DNA of 62,193 nucleotides, filler included, from Diploschistes diacapsis (Eukaryota), in assembly GCA_023645945.1 (NCBI GenBank). It is 20 parts of 20 records of this genome, joined end to end, with 100 filler letters (N's around TTAATTAATTAA, not from the genome) between each part and the next. Parts side by side here need not be neighbours in the genome. Positions count along the whole stretch, not along the records: positions 1 to 24,001 come from JALAIB010000250.1; 19 more parts are not named here. One strand, given 5' to 3'. The notes beneath the pieces were generated by a model, which was not told the origin of the DNA, did no database searches, and saw only the letters and a program-made list of their open reading frames with translations. The position numbers were made by a program, and so were the translations under genes. Shown piece after piece: positions 1,668 through 24,001 of this stretch (positions are counted from its first letter, which is position 1; the number at the start of each line of letters is the position of its first letter).

Positions 1668-4600
1668 TCATCCTAATTCAGAAAATATATAATCAATTAC
1701 TCTTCTCATCTCCTGCCTTCGGTTCTTATCCATAGAAATCCCATCCGGTAATCTGGTCAATTCATCCCTGCTGTACTTTACCGCATCAATAATGGCAGCA
1801 TCTCCTTTAACCTTCGCACGAGCTTCTACTAGACACCTGGCCACTCTGAGATGGCCGAATATGGCCGCGGCTTGAAAGGCGGACCCGAACCCGAACCCGG
1901 AATTGTCGTACGGATCGGCCCCAGCGAGCAGTAAGCTATTAACTACAGAGAAGTAGCCCTTGGTTGCCGCCATGTATAACGGCGTACTTCTAAAAGTCTA
2001 AACCCACAGAACCGTTATTCCTGCATGAGTGTATATAGAGCGATCTTCTTCTCGAGTCAATCGGGAAGAATTTATCGACCTCTGCGCCGTAATCTAGCAA
2101 ACAATTCACGATGGCGCAGTGGCCTGTGTGAGCAGCGATGAATAGAGCGGTTCGCCCCAAAGAATCTTGCTTAGCATCAACTTCAGCTCCTAACTTCAGC
2201 AAAACCTCCACTGTTTCTATATGACGGTTTTCAATTGCACGACAAAGGGCTGACCTTCCGTAAGGGGTTGGTGAATAAACATCAAGTTTGGCTCCAGCAG
2301 AAACCAGAAGCTTCACACTGTCGATCTGACCATGTCCCGCCGCAACCTGGAGCGCAGTGCATTTGTGGTATGAGGTAATCACCACTTCCCTGGGCATACC
2401 AGCAAACAGATAAGTTGAATATAACGCGTCAACAATGAAGTCAATCGCAGCACCTTTCGCCAGGATTTCGCGGATAATGGACAAGCTGTTTTGACTGGCC
2501 GCATACAGCAGAATCTCATGCAACAGTGTGTTGTTTTTGGCTTCATGCGTGAGTATACTCGGAACTACACTCATGGCAACGATAGCCATGTCCGCTTGAA
2601 TGAAGTTCCTCAAAGTCTTCGCATTACCACACCTTTCGGGTGTGATCAAGTATAAAGCTAGTGCGGTGTGCCTGTGTCTCAACGTCCAATCCGTAACATC
2701 ATTCAGAATTGACGGATGCGCATCATGATCCAATGTCTTATCGAGTTCTGTTCTGATCCAGGGGCGAAAGGCCAAGCTGTTTCGCCCTGCAACACATGCA
2801 TGGAACAGCCTCTTCATGGGTAATCGGGTACCAGAATCAAAGTTTACCAAATGATAGATCCAATTGTGTCGGGCGTACTCAAGGAAATAGAACTGCTCTT
2901 CTAGCGGTGGTAGGTGCTGTGGGGGTTGCAACGCGGAGAGAACCTCCCTTCCCTTGTTCAGAAGTCCTTCCCGATCTAGATTTGGGGATTGTCGATGCAG
3001 ACGTAAAACGGTCTGCGCGAGTTTTGAACCAAAATTGCGGGACTGAGCAATTGGGCTCAGGCCAAGCTGCACAGGCTGAATTTGCGGATCGACCCCTTTT
3101 TGTACTTTAACAAGCTGCCGCTCAAAGTCAGTGAAATGTAGGTATGTGAGACACAGAAAGCCGAGGTGATTGTCTGTGTCCTCTTCACGGAATATGTGTT
3201 CATCGCAATGTGAATCTGAGAAGAGGTATTTTTTAATGCTATGGTGAACGTAGTGGACAGTCTCGTATTCTTCGTCTACGAATATCAAGCCGCAGCAATC
3301 GCTAACGACGCGGCCCATATCATTTGGAACAGCTCCGGGATCGAAAGCTTTTTGTTCAATCGAAAGACTGAGCAGCTCCTTAAATTCGTCGACACGCAGC
3401 GGTCGTTTGAGTAATCCGCAATATTGAAGCATCTGAGATGCGTGGTCTGCTGTGCTCCGGGTCTTGACCCGACCGAGTTTCCTCTGGAGAAGCTCAGTCA
3501 AGCTGCGCGGTAAACGACTTAATGAAAGTAAAAGGTCGTTATCGGAGTTCTGTGCGCATAGCTCTTCGATCACAAGCCGTGTCCATAGAAACCTTATTGC
3601 CCACGATTAGTCCACCTCAAGTTCAGAAGGATTCCAAGCTTCAGCTTCGATTTTAGCCATGAGAGAAGGCGTTGCGCCTCAGACCACAAAGAACAGCTGG
3701 CCATAGGTGAACGTTATTTCAAGGGAAGTGCTTTCACTTACATTCCGTCAGAACCCTCTTCTAAAGCCTTTGCAACATTTACTATAAGACCTATATTGCT
3801 TAATATGAGTTGTTCGCTCTCAAGATATTCCTGCAGCTTGACATCGATATAATGATTCAGGTCGGAATTATTTTTCTCTCTCGTGACATGTATCTTGAAA
3901 GTAGGCCAGGCAGATCTGGGAAGAAAAGTCTCAGTATCAGGACGGCCAGAGAAGAATACCTTGAGGCGCACCGCACGTTGCAGCTGTTCTACGCTTGCAC
4001 CGACCTTTCGGACTTCGATTTCTTCGCACTCGTCATATCCATCAAGAACAACGAAGTACGCCAGGTTGGAACTAAGATGGGCGCAGATGAATTCTGTCGT
4101 GCCTTGCTCGTCAAGATCTTTGCTATTACGGTGCAATTCTTTAAGCTGACCGAGAGGTACGTTCTCGATGTACAAATCCAGTATTTGACGCGCCAGGCTT
4201 CCAAGAATGCTTCGCGCCGACAACGATTCTCTGTAGTCAGCCCGGCAAAAGTAGTATGCAACGATGTCGGATTGCTCGCGCGATTCAAAAAGACGCGCTA
4301 CAATTTGAGAAGCAAGCATCGTCTTCCCAACACCCATTGTGCCGGAGCACCATAGGGTTGCTGATTCTCTGCTCCCGCGCCACGCTAGAAAAGCTGATTC
4401 ACGCTGTATCCACTCGGCAGTTCCGGGAATTCGTTCGCGTTGCGCCTGCTTCCAAGGTTTGACGTGGTTGATGGAGGATAGATTTTCCTTGATTGACAAG
4501 CGTAGCCTTCTTACTTCTTTTTCCGCCTGCTCGTTTCGCCATTGGTCAGACCTAGTAAACTCTTTCCGTGCGGCTTTACGGAACGCTGTGGCCCAGTTAT

Positions 4601-5321
4601 GATGCAGTCTTTGTTCTCTGACTGACTCTTGCGCAGAGAGCTGAGAAGCTAGTGTAATTGATAATTGCACGCCCTTCGCTGCCTGCTCTATTTTTTCTAG
4701 AAAAGGTTTGAATTCAAGCTCAAATGGCCTCAACACCGAAGACAGAACTTGGACCACTGAGGATTTCTGCATCACCTCAATGATCTTGGTGGATAGGCGA
4801 ATGACAACCCCATAGTATTCACAAAGTGCGCTCTGAAGTTCCATACAGTCCGGGAAGAGGTAACCAAACTTCTGGTACGCTGGACAAAATTTCCCTATAT
4901 TCATGATGAAACTTGTGACCTTATCGAAATAAGAGAATATGTTGCTTGCTGCAAGTATGGCCAGTTTAACAGAGCCCCAGATTAAGGCCGCAAGAGCAGG
5001 GTTAGAGTCGACGAATGTGCCGACGACGCTAGCAAACTGCTGTGTCGAGTCCAGGAAGCTGCACAACCTTGGAGCTACACAGCGCCTTCCCCTGCTCTTA
5101 TTTCCAGCATCAATTCGGGTAATGAATTGAATGACGCTACCAGCATCAGGTGCCGGTGATACAGCATGTAATTGTTGCTTCTGCTCGGTTGAGAGTACAT
5201 TTTCGAAGCTCACCAAGGCATCGCGAAGCACAGCAGTAGGATCTGATCCGAGATATTGAGGAGAACCTGGCACAATGCTTTTCGGTGCAAGGTCCATGAT
5301 CATAAAGGCGTCATGCTCCAA
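1668..5321 (-). CDS. Fungal NLR-like STAND protein: helical N-terminal domain, NACHT NTPase, ankyrin repeats; apparent frameshift near the 3' end
   Basis: ORF 3738-5321 has a Walker A (GTMGVGKT) and Walker B (VVLDGYDE). Intron 3593-3741 (GTAAGT...CTAAT...AAG) joins it to ORF 1990-3573 via GM|FLWTRLVIEEL. Ankyrin repeats follow (TALQVAAGHGQ, SALCRAIENRH, TALFIAAHTGH). The last ankyrins (STPLYMAATKGY, 1668-1990) are in a shifted frame. Confidence 0.85.
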
Positions 5322-6538
5322 CTGACGCTTCTGTTATCAGCGTTTCGATGTTGGCGAGAGGCAGATAACAGCGCTTGGTTCTGCAGTAAAGCGGCAGTAC
5401 GGAGTGCAACGCATTCGTATTTTGCTTCAGAAACCTTTCTAAATGATATTCGTTCCTTGTTGTGGAAGAAGTGCTCATACAAAACAGAAACCCAATGGCT
5501 GGACGAAATGTGTTTGCTGCGGTGACTCAGTCAACAATCGCATTCCAAGTCTCGATGCAGTTGCATAATAAAAGCCTCGTGACAAGGCTGTGAAGTAAGG
5601 CTCTCTTGCTCGTCCCCAATCTGCCTCATCCAACCCCACTGCTGGGCAGGCATTGTGACCGAAAGACAATATACATCATCCCGTCGCGGATTGAGCATCT
5701 TCAAAGCTTCATTGCCTACACTGATTAAATTGTATATGTTGTGCTTTCCATAGAAAGTCTTCTAGGAGAGATCTACGTATGCGGATTATGTGTCACGTGA
5801 CTCCGCGTTTGGCGCTGTCTAAATGCTACGTTCCCAACGCGCTCATGGACACGACCTCCTGTACTATGTTTACATTCCGAGGACCAAGCAGCTTTACCAT
5901 TCACGTTGAACGGCAGACCAATTTGAACCATTTGGTAATATGTGGTATGTCTCCATTATACATGCTAATCCGAGATTTACGGTACGTCGTCAAGGCTTCA
6001 CCGTCCGATGCGACTACCAGACCCGGAACAAGGAAGATTTCTCATGCTTTCAAGGACATCAGGGCCTGCTCCGATCATCTCGCCGGTTCCTGGCCAAGAT
6101 AGTAAAACCAAGTAGTGGCTGTTGCGATCCCGGCTCTGGGTTGCACGAATTGTTCTATGGTCCATAGAGGTGCAAATACAGTGGGTGAAAGGTAAGTTCG
6201 ATGAGAAACCCGAGAGCATCACGATACCTTGGATGCGGATCAAAGTCCGTGAACAAGTACTCCTACAAATAGATGATCAGACGGAACGGCTTTCATGATA
6301 GTTTTCGAAGACAGCGTCAGGGTGTAACCCCAGGAGAAACCCTAAGATCGCCTTGTGGAAGAGCTCAACCGGCGGGATTCCCAGTCGATAACATGAGTCC
6401 AGAAGTACCACGCGAGGCAGATGCAACGATCGATCGTGGAAGGAGCCTAGGCCATACTGGCACTCTGAGATCAGAAAATGAAAAATTGAATGAGACGAAT
6501 GCATCCCTAGAAGGCCACTCGATTGCACACATCCAGAC

Positions 6539-7473: not shown

Positions 7474-8221
7474 GGTTGATTATAGAGGCCACGAAGTTCC
7501 AATACAATCCATTCAGTGTGAACAATAGATAGTTGAAAGATAACATGCGGATGAGTCACTTATAAAGTCTCCAAGAAGCGAACTAGCCATATAGCGTCCA
7601 AGCCTGACTCCGGAGCGTGTACCCAGGCAAGACAAGGCAACGAGGGGAAGGGCCAGCAGGAGTCCTAGTCGAATAGCGGCAGCTCTTTTAGGGTGACAGC
7701 TGAAAACGACTTGGGCAGTACTGCATACCGATTTTTGGGGACGTAGCCTTGTCGTGTCGTTTAGCCTTACGGGTATGATAAGACGCTTGCCTACTTAGGA
7801 TACCGCGGGATATCAGAGGATCGGACGATACCGCCATCTTTGATGGATTCTGAAAAAGGCAATTCAAGCCGAAGTTATGGAAGTCGTTTATTGAGCCTCT
7901 AATTGAAAGGAGCCAGTAGGCTACTATACCTACGAGGACGTTGGGCCCTTAGATAACGGAACAGCAACAGGGCCGTTCATTGGAGCAGTATAAGCATATG
8001 TTCGTGTGTTGTTGTGACGCGGTCAAATCTCTCAACCAACAATCTGGAACAACCGAGCCAAAGATGGAGTATAGGTAGAATTGAAACGTTGTTCTTGAAC
8101 ATGTCAAAACTCAAAACCCAACACTCGCAAGAGCAAAAAAATTTATTCTGATAGGTCACATGTGAAAACCACATACACTGTCTGCTGTGGTGATCGGGCC
8201 AGGTTTCCTCATTCCAAGCAT

Positions 8222-9901
8222 CTATACCTTCTCCCCAAAACCACCGTGAGCCTTTTCGTCTCCATCACTGCCACTATTCCCCATATGAGAATGATGGAGT
8301 ACGTCCATGGCATCATTGGTCGCGGCAGCCCTCATGTCGTCGTCGTTCTCAACATGGAAATCACGCCCAAGGTACTCGGGCCCGAGGAAGGTAAGCAAAA
8401 TGACATAGGCGTAGACGCAGGCCATGAACTGTCACCCCGTTAGTTCTGGGGCTCGAATTCATATCCAAGCGTAGACTTACAATGCAAATTACGATACCGT
8501 AATTGTAACGTGACTCGTCCTTCAGGGGCGGTAGCGGAAATCTCTCGCCTATGGTAGCTTCAATGGTGGACGAGGCCGAGCTGACGAGGTTCCCGAGCTG
8601 ATAGGAAGACCCGACAACGAAAGTTCGAAACGACCCTGGGGATAGTTCCATCAAGTGAATGGGTATAACACCCCAAGCACCTTGAACGCAGGCCTGTTCA
8701 AAGAAAGCACTAGCAATAACGCCATTATTGGAAACAAACGTATACGGATACAACAGCGCTCCACCAACAATGCTGATAGCAATGATGGAAAAGCGACGGC
8801 CGAGCGACTGGCTGAGAAATCCAATTATCGTTCCTCCGAACATGGCTCCAAGATTGGCTACCACTTGAGTTATAGTAACCTGGTTGGCGTTAAACGAATA
8901 CTGATTCTGCAGCATGGTCGGATATAGATCCTGGCTGCCGTGGGACATGAAGTTGAATCCAGTCATCAGCAATATCATGTAGGTTAAGAGCTTCCAATGC
9001 CTTCGCAAAGCCACCTTGCCCTCTGCAAGAAACGTGCCCGTGAGATTACCGGTCGCATTACGAACAAGCTGGCGCTCTCTGTAGGCCTGAGTCTCGGGCA
9101 GACAGAGACGGAAGAGGATCAAGAAGATTGGCGGACAGGCTCCAAACCAATACAGCGGCCTCCATTGGTAGGGCGTGGTGTTAACCAAGGCTCGAGCAAA
9201 TACGGTGGCCAGAAGATATCCAAAAGCATATCCCTGCTGAAGCATGCCTGATACTATACCCCTAGCTTCAGAAGGGCAGTCTTCAAGAGCAGTAGCCGCA
9301 GCGTTGCCGTACAGCCCACCCATGGCGATACCATACACTGCACGCACACCAAGGAACTGTTGGTATGTGTTGCAGAATCCGGTCGCAAGCTCCAATACGA
9401 TAAACAGAACCATATTCACAACGTAGGGCCACTTTCGCCCATACCTATCTGCGGCGATACCAAATGTGATACTCCCAATGGAGCGCATCATGAGCACGAG
9501 CGTGATGCCCCATGTGATGTCGGCATTGGAACGATGGAATGCCGTAGCCAGGTTCGTCAAAGTTAGGGAAACAGTGAAGTAGTCAAAAGCGTCCCACGTC
9601 CCTATTACGATACCTTAGTTTTCGCTCAATAATACATCTCGTATGGACCACTCACATCCTAACCAACCAACAAAGAAGAAAAGCCATTGCTGGCCATTCA
9701 GCAGCCGAAGCAGTCGGATGGGATTAGGCAGCTGTCAAAACTGTTAGCAGTTCCAAGGTAATGAAGGGCTCCTCAACAGCGCACCTTGTGCAAAGGCGGC
9801 CTGAGGGTGCTGAAGCGGGTGGTGAAATATTGTCCAGTGCTCATATGCTTCGGCTGCGCAGCCGGAGCGTAGTTGAGCTCCGGCTTAGTTCCTTGCTCCA
9901 T
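8222..9901 (-). CDS. JEN1: JEN1-type carboxylate/H+ symporter (MFS, SHS family), 4 exons, intact
   Basis: Splicing gives MEQGTK...TRFSTLRPPLHK|LPNPIRLL...GW|TWDAFDYF...ADRYGRKWP...GMLQQGY...NFMSHGSQDLYPT (the Jen1 signature NXXSHXSQDXXXT)...YQLGNLVSS. The last intron joins ORF 8361-9560 to ORF 8222-8425. Confidence 0.93.
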
Positions 9902-10337
9902 TTTTCGGGCCAACACACATGCGCCAGGCAGGAACAACTAATAATCAAGGGGAGCAAAAGCAGGATCAAAAGTGCCAGGAGAGCTTCATTCTTGCAGCGG
10001 AAAGTAAGCAAATTCTTAGGAGGGTGATGACCACGGCGGGGAACGGCTCATCGGCCTTTCCTCCTCGGGATGATTAATAAGCCGGTTGGAAGAGCCGTAG
10101 CTTCCGCGTCACGTGGATAGAGCATTTGCTCGATGCGGAGAAAACGAACGAAGTATACATGTTCATTCAGTTAGACCATCATGAATTAGAGCGATAAATG
10201 CCCGCTTGGTACATGAGTGATTGGCACGTATCTTATGAAGACGCTGGTGAACCTCTTAGGGAACAATTCACTACTGATCCAAAGTCAGAACTAATTTCAA
10301 TGAACCAAATCAGGAGCACATCGACCGATTTGGGAGG

Positions 10338-11484
10338 CTATTGATAGGGCCTCTCGATGGCTCCGTGTGCTCCCATCATGAGGATGTCCATCTTAAAGCT
10401 TCGAGCGGGAGCTTTGAGATTGGTAAGTGTGATATCGTCAACCAAAATCAGCACATCTTCCGTCATCGCGTCCCTCAGATGGCCAAGTATCTGAGGGGCT
10501 TTCTCATCCGAGTAGTTGTGCATGATATTACGCATGTAATAATATTTCGCGCCTAGAGTCACTTGGTTGCTAAACTTTATGCACAGGGGAGAAGGACGGC
10601 ACCTTTCACCGGGTTGAGGGTAAAGAAGTCATGTTCTATCGTCTCGATGCCTTCTAGCGAGCCAGCATGTGGAAGCACGGTCTTCAACAGGCCCTCAAGA
10701 ATCACGCGACCAGGGAGGGTTAGATACTTTTCCTTGAACTCTTTACACTGTGGACCAGTACCACCGCCAACGTCGACGAAGAGTGCCCGCTGCGGATCGA
10801 CGCCGCTTGCTCTTCTTGTAGAGGATACATGCTGAGCCAGGTTGACGCCCCCATCCGCCGAGTTGGACAGTATTGAAACCATATCCTTCGTCCACATGGG
10901 TTGGCCTTTATATGCTCATAAGAGGCAAGCTCGGTATGATGACCGAGCTACAGAGGGCAATGCTTTGGATCGGTGATGTCATCGTACCCATTCTCCTTGA
11001 GGAACCCGGGGATGGCAAGGACCAGAGGAGCATCAACATCTATCCTTGGCACCCTCTTAGTCGCTTACTAGAACGAACGGCAGGAAACTTACGAAAACAT
11101 GGCCATTGCTTTGCCGAGAGGTGTTGTCAAGTGTTCAGTGATGTGGTTCCCTTCGTAAGTGTCTTCAGCAATCTCTTTGATCATGCTCAGCGCTACAAGA
11201 CAGCGCAAAAGTCTTCCGAGCAGTACTGGAGTTGCACTGGTTTTCTCTGCCAACTCTGATGTCGTGCTTGGTCCTTTCTTCTCCAAGATGTGATCAAAGA
11301 GTTTAAGGTCGACGGCTGTCTTGGCCATGGCCAATTCCATGAAGACGGCTTCGAGCCTGCCATATGTGTCCTCTGGTGCCTCTAGCGAGAGAGTCAGATT
11401 CCTAATGGAATCAATAATGGTCCTTTGTGCTTTCTCATCTGCCCCTTGGACCAAAGCTCGAACTAGGGAAAATATGTTGTCCAT
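10338..11484 (-). pseudogene. Secondary-metabolism O-methyltransferase (Methyltransf_2 type) pseudogene
   Basis: Winged-helix N-terminus (ELAEKTSATPVLLGRLLRCL), FVDVGGGTG, HDFFTLNPVK|GAKYYYMRNIMHNYSDE motifs. In-frame TAG at 10948-10950 (HCPL*LGHHT), a frame break near 10900, and a truncated C-terminus (ERPYQ*). Confidence 0.8.
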
Positions 11485-16923: not shown

Positions 16924-17103
16924 TCTACGCTGCATCTGCCCCTTGTTTACAGCGCATGTGTTGGTCTTTGCATATTGTTGCTTATTCGCAAATACGATTT
17001 CGGGCCAATAGTTTTCTCGTTTAAACATATGTGGGAAGAGCGAATGCTTGGTTTCCTAGCTTTTGAATTTATTTATGGTTATGCATTATGCTTCGATTTG
17101 AGA

Positions 17104-18194
17104 ATGAATACAACAAGCAAGGATCCAGAAACTTATATCCTTTCTCACTTGCGTGAAGATAAGGAAGAAGATCAACGCCTCAACTACCAGCACGAGTTAA
17201 TTAAACATGCCATTTTGGATGGTCGGTTGCTGCATCCTGTTATTGCTGATAGGGAGTTCAAGAATGGTATTGCTGATATCGGCTGCGGCACTGGTATCTG
17301 GCTCGACAATATGGCGAGGATGATTTCTGCTCAGGGCCGAGGTACTGAGAGTAACGGCCGTATGCTGGTGGGATTCGACGTAAACGTTCACGCGTTTAAC
17401 CCCAAACCGGGCTGCAGGCGTTCAATTAATCGAGCATGACTGCACCAAGGCCTTCGAATTAAAATATTGGAACAAATTCGACCTTGTTAACATCCGCGGC
17501 CTTGCATACGCCCTGCCATATGAGACTTTCACATGCCTAGCAGAGAACGCAGTACAGCTACTAAGTAGGAGAAGAGCCTGGTCGCTGGAGAGAGAGAGAC
17601 TTGCTAAACGGTCATAGGGCCTGGGGGGTATCTACAATGAACCGAGACCGAAGCACGGCTCTGGAAGGCGTATCCAGATGCCATTGAGATAAATGAAGTC
17701 ACTGAAAGTCGTTGAGAATGAGCGTCATGAGCGTGCTCTGATCCCCATAATAGGGCGCTCTGCTCTATCTGACCTGAAACTCCAATTAAGTGCAACATAC
17801 TCTTCCGCATTTCATGCTCCGACAACTTCTGTCTTTGAACATGAGGTTCAAGCCTGCTCGGCTACTCCCCAGCGGAGACACGATGACTATTCTTAGTTTT
17901 GAATTGCGTCCAGGAGGTGTGAGTAGAGCTCAGCAATGTAAAGACACTGAGCTGAACCAGCGCTTTTCCGATCTCTTGCTCGAATCGGTCAAGCTCTTCT
18001 TGGACGGGTCTATAAGGCGCAGAATGTCCTCTGCGGATGAGCGAACCGAGAACGACAAGGGCATTGTGGATGATCGTGAGCTAAAGGACGTACAGAGGCT
18101 TTCGAATTGTATTGAAGAAGCTCAGAAATCCAACAGCATCATGATGGGCGGAAGCTTCCCCTATCTTGTTGCACAGAAGTCGCTTCTGGAATGA
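17104..18194 (+). pseudogene. Class I SAM-dependent methyltransferase (LaeA-like/Methyltransf_23 type) pseudogene
   Basis: EDQRLNYQHELI, IADIGCGTGIWL and LVGFDV motifs. A +1 frameshift near 17410 restores GVQLIEHDCTKAF...FDLVNIRGL. After the intron, RPGGYLQ*TE has TGA at 17638-17640 where Trp is expected. Confidence 0.8.
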
Positions 18195-18418
18195 CGAACC
18201 CACAAAAGAGCGCAGTGTCTAATTGTTGAACGACAGGAATAGCATGCTAGCCAATACGACCAATAGTCCTATGATGGAATATTCGTCGTTGATACATGTT
18301 TTGACTGAGTGAATCAATATACCTATACACTGTGCTTTCCGACCACCGTGTTCAAACTTGAGTCACGAAATACATAATCTTCCTGATCCCTTACATTGGT
18401 TCCATGGACAGTACTGCT

Positions 18419-19878
18419 CTATGGTGGTACCTCAAGCTCTTTGGACCCTGGCATACGCTCAATCCCATGTTCCTCGGTCGTGTATAGTTGATTCTCTCCC
18501 ACCCAGTCCTTTAATGTGTCGAAATTTCGACATTTATGCTGCCTGCCCGTCAATCACTGGTCAGCGGGACGATTTGTTTCGGAGTAATAAACACTCTTAC
18601 ACGTTAAAATCTGGAAACGGCGCAGGGTGACCCTTTACCCAGACATACAGTCAGGTGCCAAAAGTAGTTAGGTCCCCCCCATATCTCACCAAAATCGATC
18701 AACTTTGTACCCAAACATCTTCCCCAGCAATGTGCCAAATCGGAAATTTAAAGCTTTATAAAGAACTTTAAGAGCGTTTATGTACAAGAGATTTTCTACG
18801 AAATTTTTATAACAATTTCTTGAGTGCCTAATATGCGGTTAAACATTTAAGAAAAATGGTCCCCGCCAAAAATCGCGGTTACGGGTGCGGTAACTGTACC
18901 CTCGCTTTTTTCAGTCGCATCTTGCGGCCCCCCAGGAAAATGTAAAAATTTTTGAAAAAAAAGCGAATGAATATTTGAAGCTTTTAAAAGGCTCTTATTT
19001 TTTTTTTAATTTTTAAAAACGTTTTCGCAGAGATATAGGGGCTAAAAAAGGGACTTTTTTGGTGAGAAATTGGGGGGACCTAACTACTTTTGGCATAGTA
19101 CTGTAGGTCAAGATCCCCGTGTCGGTGTCGCACATTAGCTATAACTTATCAATTCCTACAGTTCTGTCAAAGTCCAATCCTTTCAAGAAGCCTACCTTCT
19201 GACGTAAATTATCGATGCAATGATCGAGATGGTAACGCAGCGTTTGAGGGCTGTCCCGCCAGGGCCCGGCCTTATCCTTGTAATAGTCCCAGTACGAGGC
19301 CTGCCGGAGCATATTCAGGCAGTGTAACTGATGTAGCACCTCGAAAGAGGCTATATAACCCCCGCCCAGTTCTGGGCGCCAGCTCTACCGAGTACTCGGC
19401 GGATGCATTCACCGCCTTCAAGGTCTGTTTGGAAATGCTGATAGCGCCTCCTGCCGCAGTTAGCAGGAAGATGTAAATGGTTTGGAAATGAGGAACCAAA
19501 CAAACCATCGCCATAGGTGATACTTTTGCATGCTGCGTCAATCGCTGGGCTCGGAAGACCTTTATATGCATTGGGCATGACAAAGCTACCGTCAAGCCGT
19601 CGATAATGGCCCGATCCCCGGATGGCTTCAATAGCTGGAGAATACATAGGCATATGATCCTCACAGTAGCCTGGTCGTGGTGCAGACTCTCGAGTGCAAA
19701 GACTGTTTAGAAATATACCGAGAGAGACAAAGAAGAAGATGACTCGCAAGATCCAAAGGTAAATATATGTCTTGTTCCCGTAACGAGGCAAGCGAAAAGC
19801 TAGATTTTTGTCATCCTCGTCTCTACTACACTCCTTTCCAAGAAGGCTTTTCTTGCAGAGCTTGTCGTCGGGATGCAT
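18419..19878 (-). pseudogene. ustYa: UstYa/DUF3328 RiPP oxidase with two HXXHC motifs, disrupted by a MITE and a frameshift
   Basis: N-terminal TM helix, YSPA, SPAIDAA, then GGYIASFEVLHQLHCLNMLRQ...HLDHCIDNLRQK|LMCDTDTGILT[MITE]YVWVKGHPAPFPDFNV|QHKCRNFDTLKDW...VPP* (stop 18419-18421). Extra base at about 19375. Confidence 0.92.
18648..19103. mobile_element. 456-bp Tc1/mariner-derived MITE with TA target-site duplication
   Basis: The left end CAGTCAGGTGCCAAAAGTAGTTAGGTCCCCCCC and the inverted right end CAGTACTATGCCAAAAGTAGTTAGGTCCCCCC are near-identical for about 45 bp. TA at 18646-18647 and 19104-19105. AT-rich non-coding interior. Removing the element plus one TA restores the host reading frame (ILT-Y-VWV). 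Confidence 0.93.
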
Positions 19879-20515
19879 TTTGTTTCAGAGGTCTACTCGA
19901 AGCTCATTCCACAGTTAATGAAGGGAAGGTAGACCAAAATGAAAGTTACAATGTTCTTGGAATGGCAGCCTCTGCAGTGGAACATCAGTCAAGTCCTCTT
20001 TCCTTGCTTGGGCACCTACCAGTAGCGGACAAGTCGGTAAGATCAAAATGGCTATGGGGCGTTGCTGAAGCCACAGCTGCAAAGCCTTTCAGGGTAAGCT
20101 TGATGACTCGATTAGGCATATTTGATCCAGAGCCGACAAGCAAGCGCGCATTGACATACAAGCTTGCTTGGCTTGCTTGTCTTACCTTCCCGACGTGGTA
20201 TTTAGATACGACGATCAGACGCAAGGCAGCTGAGAGAATATGTGGGTATGATACCCCTTCCCAATATGTGCTTCATGTGGCAACTGCCGTGGGAAATATG
20301 CATTAGACCATCCTCTAACCAGCCAGGTTGGAGCAACCTTCGAGACCAGAAATATCAGGTGAGCCTTTTGTTCAAGCACCTCTCCGTCCCGCTAATTAGA
20401 TATTTATATCTTGTTTATCTCAACCTGTGGGCATTGAATTCCTTATGTTAGACTACCCTTTGCATTTTCTCTCCCCCAACCCAGCTGCTGTGTCCCAGTT
20501 CTCACTTTAGCCCTC

Positions 20516-20813
20516 ATGCAGTCTAACCTTCTCCTGCTACTCACTGTCCTGGCGGGGGCCGTCATGGCTGCTCCGGTTGTTGTCCCCAAGGACAGCAGTT
20601 CAGTTGTGAACTCTCGCTTCATCATCTACAACGATGGCAATATCGCCCGTGACATCAAAACCAAAGAGAAATGGCGAGAACGCTGTAATCAACACACGTT
20701 CCATCACCTACGAAGACTGTGATTTTGTTCCTCGCGATGCCGACGCCGATCCACGAGATGCATTTAAGAATTGTAGATCAATAAGTTGGCTGGGGCTGTA
20801 CTACGTTGCATAA
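20516..20813 (+). pseudogene. Dikaritin-type RiPP precursor (signal peptide plus 2 repeats, Kex2 KR site), one frameshift
   Basis: MQSNLLLLLTVLAGAVMA-APVVVPKDSSSVVNSRFIIYNDGNIARDIK. Deleting one A from AAAA (20657-20660) continues it as PKRNGENAVINTRSITYEDCDFVPRDADADPRDAF...* (TAA 20811-20813). It is divergently transcribed from the UstYa gene. Confidence 0.7.
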
Positions 20814-21490
20814 CAGGTCTGGGTCAGCAGGCGGCATGTATCTATCCAGAGGCATTGGAAAGCGTGCACTCCCATAACAATTAGCTCATGTGGGAAAATG
20901 CAACTTTGGTATGATTTTATACGCCTCTTGATTCTTGTTACCTTTTCCGGTGGATATTTGCTTCAGTATGGCCACCGCACCATCCAAATGACTGTTCTCG
21001 TTGGTAGTCTTTCGCTCTTCTCTTCCCATCGACTCGCCTGGAAAGAGGCGGGCTAGATAGAACACACAACTCTTCTCTCCACCCACCTTTTCTCCGTCGC
21101 AAGGGTGGCTAATTAATTGGCTTAGGAAAAGACGCACCACCTTCTAAGCAACACTCACATAGAACCCGCACGCATACCGTATAGCGTCCTTGTACATGAT
21201 TCCATGGGAAGGTTGGCTGCCTGATGCAGAGCGAGGCTTCTCGGGGCTATGGCAGCCTTTGCCACTAACTTGCATCATTGTTTGGAAAGACGTATGGATT
21301 GCTTCTGTAAAGGGTTTTTTTGGGATCTCTAGCTGTTACACAAATGTCTTACTGCTTTATTTAAGAGGGCCGACATAGGAACGATGGTATCCGGAGTCCG
21401 CCATTTGTTAGAGAATCGGATAGGCTCTAAAAGCTGTTACTTGACCAAAGTCTCTACACGCTTCCGGTATCCGTATAATAATTAACAACG

Positions 21491-22529
21491 ATGGGGGGAG
21501 CAGCAACCATTGTCATCACCGTGACTATAGTCCTTGGAATTTTGTCTATTATCTCAGTGACTCTGCGTCTATACTGTCGCATTGCCTATCAAAGATCCCC
21601 CTTGGGTCCCGACGACTACTGTGTCATTCTGGTATGGGCCCTTTCCACATATAATTGTGTACGGAAGCTGATCATACCATAGCTGCTTTCAATTGGTATT
21701 AGTGTTGTCAGCGATTATACAGCATCAGTTACAGGAGTGGGTGATGAGTCCTATCAGCCTACAATAGACGAAATCATGTTCGCTTTAAAGGTATAGTGTC
21801 GATGTTTGAAGAAGAGTCGCCTATGCATTGACCATTGGGAAGGCCAATTTTTGCCGCCGAAAATAGTCAGATTGCATTCATGGGCTTCGTCAAGGTGTCC
21901 TTGTTGCTCTATTATCGACGAATATTCATTTCGCGACCATTCATCATCTTCTCGAAATGGCCCGTCTACAAGCAGTGGAATCCCGAAGCTGATTATAACG
22001 TTGACGTTTCGGCGGTTCTGATAAGTTTCGTTGTCGGAAACGCCATATTTGATCTATTTACCCTTGCCTTGCCGCTGGCCACGCTCCGCGGCCTCCAAAT
22101 GAATTCCAATCGAAAGCTCGTCTTGTCGATCGTCTTCATCTTCGGCAGCATGTGCGTGGCCTTTGCCCATCTCTATTTCTCCATGTAGAACTCCCCAGTC
22201 CGCTGGCAGCCATTGGCAGCTGCATTTTAGCTTCCCTCTTCCGCCTGTATTATGCCGTCTGGTACATCCGTGTGCCTGCAACTCCAACCTCCCTGTTTGA
22301 AGTGCCCTTCATTTACAACAGCCTCTGGGCCATCGTTGAGACTCCCATATTCATCATCACCACCTGTCTCCTGACTCTCGGGCCGCTTTACCGCTCGTGC
22401 GACGGCCCCAGCTCGCTTCTGCGCAGTCTGCGTTCCCTGCTGCGCTCGCGCCGTACAGTTAAACCGAGCAGGGATATCTGGAGAAAACAGGAGAAGGGTG
22501 GAAGACACGAACTCGACGAGAAACAATAG
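21491..22529 (+). pseudogene. PTH11-like / Sat4-family integral membrane (rhodopsin-domain) protein, probably pseudogene
   Basis: SVTLRLYCR...LGPDDYCVIL, KVSLLLYYRRIF, NAIFDLFTLALPL...MNSNRKL, WAIVETPIFIITTCL motifs. An extra T at 21848-21852 breaks the frame after intron 2. One TM segment appears deleted between FISRPFIIFS and KWPVYKQW. Confidence 0.7.
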
Positions 22530-23501: not shown

Positions 23502-24001
23502 ATGGCACCTTCAGATGCTCCCATCATCGTGATTGTCCCCGGAGCGGCGCAAAAGCCAGCCCACTACGCCTACCTCCAACACCTCCTCCACCTCCTCCAC
23601 CAGAAAGGCTACCCCACGCTCTCCGTTCCCTTGCCCAGCACTGGTCCCGTGGGGCCAGTGACCGTGCAGGACGACGCCGACTTCGTCCGTTCTCGTCTGC
23701 TCCTACCCGTCCTGGACATCGAGAACCACAACGTCATCACCGTCTCTCATTCGTACAGCGGGATCCCTACAACCGCTGCTGCCCACGGCCCTTGCTAAAG
23801 CCGAGAGCGTGCGGCGCAGGGAAAAGCCACTTCGGTCCTCGGCTAGATCTTCATCGCCGCAGTGCTGACCAAGGGGCGGAGACGGGCAAGGGCGTGGTCG
23901 ACGCTTTTGGCGGACAGTACCCTCCCCATCTTGAAATCGACGTATGTCCGATCTCTCCGTTCCTCGTCGTGGCTCTCCGTGCTCAACTCTCTCCGGGGGG
24001 G
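23502..24001 (+). pseudogene. Alpha/beta hydrolase (Abhydrolase_6 type) pseudogene, truncated by the contig end
   Basis: IVIVPGA oxyanion region, VSHSYSG nucleophile elbow, DDADFVR. Small duplications (9-nt HLL repeat, +C at ~23790, +AG at ~23805) and in-frame TAG at 23844-23846 (VLG*IFIAA). Confidence 0.8.

Follow-up and report, generated by a model that had tools for sequence, protein, structure and literature searches.

A broken ustYa oxidase gene head-to-head with a broken repeat-peptide gene in Diploschistes diacapsis, likely the remnant of a minimal dikaritin-type locus

We analyzed a stretch of 62,193 nucleotides from Diploschistes diacapsis (GenBank assembly GCA_023645945.1), in the following called the window, and found in it a broken gene for a UstYa-type oxidase (DUF3328, Pfam family PF11807) that faces, head-to-head, a broken gene for a secreted repeat peptide. 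This pair is likely the remnant of a minimal dikaritin-type locus that does not work in this strain, a reading that we hold with a probability of about 0.72. The pair is of the dikaritin type, a known class of locus, and its core is uncharacterized; it is neither of the ustiloxin or epichloecyclin type nor a catalogued Kex2-processed repeat protein (KEP). The locus lies on contig C1669, which corresponds to window positions 1-24001 and belongs to a fungal assembly of 29 Mb in 4,361 contigs. Beyond 24001 the window consists of separate short pieces with runs of N between them, which are of no value as flanks of the locus. The coordinates of all features are given in Table 1.

The oxidase gene matched PF11807 with 72.1 bits against a cut-off of 25 (31.4 bits for the single open reading frame (ORF) alone) and is the sole match to this family on the contig. 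Comparison with full-length homologs gave a structure of four exons, and the six native pieces contain no in-frame stop. The same comparison identified two apparent frame changes as introns. Both HxxHC motifs, HQLHC and HLDHC, are present, and residues 37-60 form a hydrophobic stretch. The AlphaFold model of the ortholog P0002 is poor (mean predicted local distance difference test score 47.6), with the helix at residues 34-61 as its best-predicted part, and a PDB sequence search with the oxidase alignment returned nothing useful. The true lesions are a frameshift near 19376 and a miniature inverted-repeat transposable element (MITE) within exon 3. With these lesions and two changed clade-invariant residues, the oxidase gene in the window is not intact.

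Among the datasets that contain the locus DNA, a lichen metagenome run matches best; it may be the source of the assembly and does not count as an independent sample. Contigs from this run cover positions 17000-18670 and 19076-21000, on both sides of the MITE, at a depth of 96-100x with zero differences and zero gaps, which rules out assembly error as the cause of the gene breaks; the lesions are therefore real in the source data. Repeat-induced point mutation was rejected for the contig, as the composite index is negative across positions 1-24000. No RNA run is listed as carrying the locus DNA, which has no bearing on expression. Much of what the initial annotation had described from the sequence alone was borne out: the coordinates and the PF11807 match confirm a signal-peptide ORF head-to-head with a DUF3328 gene at 637 bp, both histidine motifs are there, a methyltransferase gene lies convergent to the oxidase gene at 224 bp, and all three genes are damaged, although the 456-bp MITE in the oxidase had been overlooked.

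Within the precursor gene, an ORF of 68 codons (20516-20722, start MQSNLLLLLTVLAGAVMA) encodes the predicted signal peptide and the first repeat only. Its hydrophobic N-terminus, followed by A-P, scored 3.29 in a crude Kyte-Doolittle scan. The two repeat units align without gaps over 13 residues with a score of 35, which 12 of 20,000 shuffles reached, and at the DNA level their alignment score was reached in 20 of 5,000 shuffles, both for stretches picked after inspection; when the rest of the contig was cut into 7,938 windows in six frames, none attained the score of 35. An intron bridging the frame break between the repeats was rejected because only GT..AG spans of 18-30 nt occur there, none of the required phase.

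Related DNA from a rock metagenome run (X2) and from a second related sample (X3) spans most of the 4-kb locus with ~95-96% identity to the window. Eight amino-acid differences are listed for the oxidase; at six of them the relatives have the residue of the clade majority, and the window has it at none. Among them are a Phe and a Trp that are invariant in 16 of 16 homologs and kept in the relatives. Six of the seven listed differences in the precursor change the residue, and four raise the likeness of the repeats in the relatives, whose alleles yield the repeat unit V-V-N-[ST]-R-[FS]-I-T-Y-[DE]-D. The last Ile before Tyr in the FIIY of the window is Thr in both X2 and X3, and for this reason we judge FIIY to be likely a drifted allele of an ITY-type core. 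Accordingly, of the core (N-S/T-R)-F/S-I-I/T-Y proposed by the initial annotation, its distinctness stands, as it is unlike YAIG, FYYTGY, INFKIPYT(G) and the YVIPID named there, but its FIIY variant is likely a product of drift. An unmatched core is the default in the KEP class, in which cores are hypervariable (838 types and 2,560 singletons), and is therefore weak ground for special interest. One X3 contig has 14 unaligned letters right before 20735, with slightly raised depth at 20721-20750, which faintly suggests that X3 has additional repeat sequence.

A query with the native exon carrying the HxxHC motifs matched 34 of 35 candidates at E ≤0.001, the best with 80–87% identity over the exon; no Epichloe protein was among these 34. 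An exhaustive search with the oxidase returned 830 proteins, 85 of them at 1e-10, and a word search with the N-terminal oxidase ORF matched none of its 47 candidates. The window protein, written with X at the breaks, is 54–64% identical to full-length orthologs and falls within a 100/100 clade comprising 15 of 20 rows, inside which the branching is not resolved. Five ascomycete classes are represented in it, namely Sordariomycetes, Lecanoromycetes, Dothideomycetes, Leotiomycetes and Eurotiomycetes. Four paralogs checked in the D. diacapsis genome are 26–43% identical to the ortholog P0002.

We then looked up the accession numbers neighboring the oxidase in Table S2 of Umemura 2020 (PMC7329392) for 18 accession prefixes. 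In 7 of the 18, a KEP is found at ±1 from the orthologous oxidase, in each case of type 128 and in a black Aspergillus. The type has eight members, all from Aspergillus and all flagged there as DUF3328-linked. The layout foreseen by the initial annotation, a ustYa gene with a secreted Tyr-containing repeat peptide, thereby recurs at orthologous oxidases in seven black-aspergillus genomes, whose oxidases (An11g07050 in A. niger) belong to the same clade as that of the window with 55–56% identity and have the precursor directly adjacent. In A. tanneri, from the sister clade, a KEP lies two accessions from the oxidase. An11g07040 is numbered next to the A. niger ortholog and is listed as a gene with strong induction by straw (values 0.3, 65.5 and 1.1; PMC3415456, PMC5598271); from the locus numbering we infer that it is the precursor. 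Several black aspergilli possess a second KEP 8–11 genes from the orthologous oxidase (GAA85944, PWY82649, PYH75210), which hints at a larger RiPP (ribosomally made peptide with post-translational modifications) region. Literature searches, with most subscription papers outside their reach, found no product of the oxidase clade.

Among characterized systems, the asperipin-2a cluster of Aspergillus flavus (aprA, aprY, aprR, aprT; PMC6514808) resembles the locus in having one DUF3328 gene, a secreted repeat precursor and a core ending in Tyr, and in lacking a tyrosinase as far as described. It differs in its core (FYYTGY against x-I-T-Y), and at the window locus no reductase was seen, only two repeats are present and the genes are broken. 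The epichloecyclin cluster of Epichloe festucae (gigA, gigB, gigC, kexB; PMC10540207) shares a single DUF3328 gene, a methyltransferase, a follower peptide after the core and a loose [IV]-N-x-[KR]-..-I-x-Y pattern, and single-repeat precursors occur there as well. If the conserved Arg is kept in the product, the repeat unit would loosely resemble the epichloecyclin core. In contrast, GigC is a SET-domain enzyme and the window gene a class I methyltransferase, and the LXKR sites and dedicated kexin of that system are absent at the locus. The ustiloxin and phomopsin clusters are alike in having a UstYa-type oxidase with a methyltransferase nearby and a precursor with signal peptide, KR site and acidic flanks; unlike the locus, they need a tyrosinase, at least two DUF3328 genes and precursors with 16 or several EDYxI repeats (PMC6514808), none of which is found here. 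Neither a tyrosinase nor an S8 peptidase was present among the scanned ORFs of the contig.

Several points weigh against a dikaritin-type remnant. The seven adjacent KEPs come from one clade, the black aspergilli, and 10 of the 18 prefixes list no KEP within two genes, including closer orthologs in Pyrenochaeta and Chlorociboria. Type-128 KEPs have at least three repeats by definition against two in the window, and the comparison with them is one of accession numbers. The window precursor contains one dibasic site, the KR in the second frame, with single Arg or Lys at its remaining boundaries, and with two repeats it falls below the KEP criterion of at least three repeats of at least eight residues between dibasic sites (Umemura 2020, PMC7329392); a pipeline that needs three repeats would therefore miss such a gene. 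Searches for precursor homologs, insensitive for such short peptides, returned only the precursor itself, as both of two candidates in its own genome and as one of six candidates in a word search of 5.8 billion proteins. A third search, among the collected ustYa loci, also found self only; it is weak for short peptides and no proof of absence. The comparison with X2 and X3 rests on the best-supported 40 of 266 substitutions and 12 of 50 indels. Finally, the reactions of DUF3328 enzymes extend to the hydroxylation or halogenation of substrates of non-ribosomal origin (PMC12435403).

This wider activity of DUF3328 proteins outside RiPP pathways, together with the absence of precursor homologs in the searches above and of a catalogued KEP at both testable non-Aspergillus close orthologs, would also fit a small ORF that is not the substrate of the oxidase, namely a secreted linear-peptide or remnant gene, with the DUF3328 protein having acted elsewhere as a CctR-like hydroxylase or halogenase. 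We regard this as very unlikely, given that no non-ribosomal peptide synthetase, polyketide synthase or other core synthase was found among the scanned ORFs of the 24-kb contig, that the head-to-head layout recurs in other pairs of the genome, in line with the KEP adjacency in the seven aspergilli, and that the KEP catalogue overlooks precursors with fewer than three repeats.

A further point against two joined repeats comes from the X2 contig over 20255-20726 (depth 4), which shows a single net +1 gap and not the difference that would join them. The second repeat and KR site reported by the initial annotation are thus both present in the other frame, but the one-base difference that its joined frame predicts is missing in X2. 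The frame break of the precursor may therefore be an old one that the relatives have in common, with signal peptide and repeat 1 making up a one-core precursor that would still function with an intact oxidase in the relatives, so that only the oxidase lesions would have ended the pathway here. Single-repeat gigA-like genes exist (PMC10540207), and the X2 match begins exactly at the TA duplication of the MITE with 149 further letters before it, which therefore fits an empty MITE site and a MITE-free oxidase, as inferred from the layout of the record. On the other hand, a sequencing error is possible at depth 4, the gap is placed no more precisely than this region, and an old loss would have eroded repeat 2, which is still well conserved. 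We consider a precursor that outlived its frame break a somewhat improbable account, and continue with two broken genes of one dikaritin-type pathway.

In such a pathway, the precursor would enter the endoplasmic reticulum through its signal peptide, as in characterized relatives such as the asperipin-2a and ustiloxin systems (PMC6514808). A membrane-anchored, dimeric di-copper DUF3328 oxidase of the secretory pathway, modeled on the membrane-anchored di-copper dimer CctR (PMC12435403), would then join the conserved Tyr to a carbon of a residue located one to three positions upstream, forming a cross-link in each V-V-N-[ST]-R-[FS]-I-T-Y-[DE]-D unit. Kex2-type and other proteases would cut at KR, with single Arg residues as probable further sites, and trimming of the acidic flanks would release a small cyclic peptide, or two, built on an x-I-T-Y core. 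Selection presumably lapsed in this lineage, in which conserved residues would have drifted, frameshifts arisen and the MITE entered exon 3.

Table 1 Features of the locus in window coordinates.
Feature	Position	Strand	Remarks
Class I SAM methyltransferase pseudogene	17104..18194	+	three frame changes and a stop at 17638-17640
ustYa exon 4	18419..18542	-	HKCR motif through stop
ustYa exon 3	18601..19138	-	split by MITE
Non-coding multi-copy MITE	18648..19103	.	456 bp; bounded by CAGT...ACTG; TA duplicated at the target; 53-nt inverted repeats
ustYa exon 2	19196..19450	-	HQLHC and HLDHC; frameshift near 19376
ustYa exon 1	19506..19878	-	N-terminal membrane helix; clade-invariant Phe and Trp altered
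Divergent intergenic region	19879..20515	.	637 bp; putative shared promoter
Secreted two-repeat peptide precursor gene	20516..20813	+	frame change near 20657-20662
Predicted endoplasmic reticulum signal peptide	20516..20569	+	18 aa; from sequence and hydrophobicity scan
Repeat unit 1	20591..20653	+	S-V-V-N-S-R-F-I-I-Y-N-D-G in the window
KR site and repeat unit 2	20664..20738	+	A-V-I-N-T-R-S-I-T-Y-E-D; frame differs from that of the signal peptide

The MITE in exon 3 belongs to a multi-copy family. Among the 40 of 55 genome candidates that were scored, three other copies are 96–98% identical and TA-flanked where visible. Copies of this mimp-like family occur on contigs C4040, C2833, C436, C3018, C245 and others with identities from 98% down to ~70%, a spread that suggests both recent and older activity. 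The element resembles the mimp (miniature impala) elements of Fusarium in its CAGT start, its TA duplication and a GC-AAAA box near the published CAGTGGG..GCAA[TA]AA (PMC6930931). It differs from them in not matching this published pattern exactly and in its length, and it represents a separate family here.

The third gene of the initial proposal, next to the oxidase, encodes an S-adenosylmethionine (SAM) methyltransferase with Methyltransf_23/25 matches under the curated cut-offs and matches to Atlas methyltransferase clusters at 0.94; a PDB sequence search with it gave nothing useful. Methyltransferases of this family have a motif after the SAM-binding loop, which an intron behind the first frame change would remove, and such an intron was rejected on these grounds. 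The relatives show as many gaps (two in X2 over 17626-17874, three in X3 over 17416-18114) as there are frame changes in the respective regions, and the methyltransferase of the relatives is therefore probably in frame. A candidate break of this gene in X3 was dropped, as the two 5′ insertions of X3 are ambiguous.

These gap counts would place the decay of the methyltransferase in the same lineage as that of the pair, and its distance from the oxidase gene is short. Methyltransferases also act in the ustiloxin and epichloecyclin clusters (PMC6514808, PMC10540207). A three-gene pathway could be drawn from this, in which the class I enzyme tailored the cyclic peptide, for example at its N-terminus or at the conserved Arg (compare GigC, which acts on Lys in the loosely similar core I-N-F-K-I-P-Y), and all three genes were lost together. 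We consider this unlikely. The gene is convergent and shares no promoter with the pair, it is of a common class I type and not a SET enzyme like GigC, and a crude SAM-motif scan matched at only 1 of 25 other ustYa neighborhoods. Moreover, unrelated genes nearby are damaged too, and the co-decay of the three genes may therefore be regional. These are an O-methyltransferase gene at 10300-11480 (−), which carries a stop within its frame and apparently changes frame as well, and a gene with a fungal rhodopsin domain (Pth11-like) at 21491-22529 (+) that is seemingly shortened internally or frameshifted. The assignment of the methyltransferase to the pathway by the initial annotation is thus not supported, and the gene is probably a decayed neighbor rather than a proven tailoring enzyme. 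At the end of the contig, 2.7 kb from the precursor, lies an alpha/beta hydrolase gene (23502-23868, +); such genes are present in some gigA-like clusters (PMC10540207). Positions 1668-5333 (−) hold a gene with NACHT/NPHP3_N and ankyrin-repeat domains, resembling fungal NOD-like receptors (NLR).

The genome contains 46 PF11807 matches on 27 contigs. Of the 26 other contigs, 25 were examined; by script, at least 10 of these have a clear repeat-peptide ORF close to the oxidase gene, and two more were recognized by eye. The head-to-head layout of the window locus is the same as in other pairs of the genome, and many repeat precursors at these loci have single-Arg boundaries. Across loci L117–L141 on the 27 contigs, many distinct repeat precursors are seen, several ustYa genes are paired, and the repeats include EDFVDFYK (L117), NSWSAKD (L128), AYAAWPVED (L130), SRCLAGF (L133) and EAIGNGY (L141). 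The precursor beside a closer paralog (L121, contig C1968, ~7800-8400) consists of units that close with Y-x-Y-[DEQ]-[DEP]-x-K, with an acidic tail after Tyr as in the window.

Lichen fungi are rich in RiPP clusters, with 987 reported in 111 genomes (PMC12048977). Precursors next to lichen ustYa genes can be short, with two repeats and mostly monobasic boundaries, which bears on the report in the same source that a search of lichen RiPP clusters for repeat precursors was unsuccessful. About five dikaritins have been characterized against hundreds of precursor types (PMC10512285), and each tractable orphan pair is therefore a lead. The copy in the window is dead, yet it leads to an oxidase clade with intact members in aspergilli that are easy to handle. 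It also illustrates clearly how, in a genome rich in such pairs, one of them is turned over through point decay and the insertion of a MITE, and the ustYa and repeat-precursor set of this genome as a whole may be of more interest than the broken locus.

A bolder and doubtful extension is that this one UstYa clade, spread over five ascomycete classes and intact in black aspergilli, cyclizes an undescribed V-N-[ST]-R-x-I-T-Y family from short, mostly single-Arg-cut precursors missed by surveys of Kex2 repeats, with the class I methyltransferase tailoring the product in the lichen lineage and An11g07040 as the live precursor.

In a metagenome scan, 79 ustYa loci were found, all distant, with 25–46% identity in the best segments. 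The best of them (L037) carries at 2949-3150 a precursor with KR-delimited TTDGTQI-EGW repeats, together with further ustYa-like genes.

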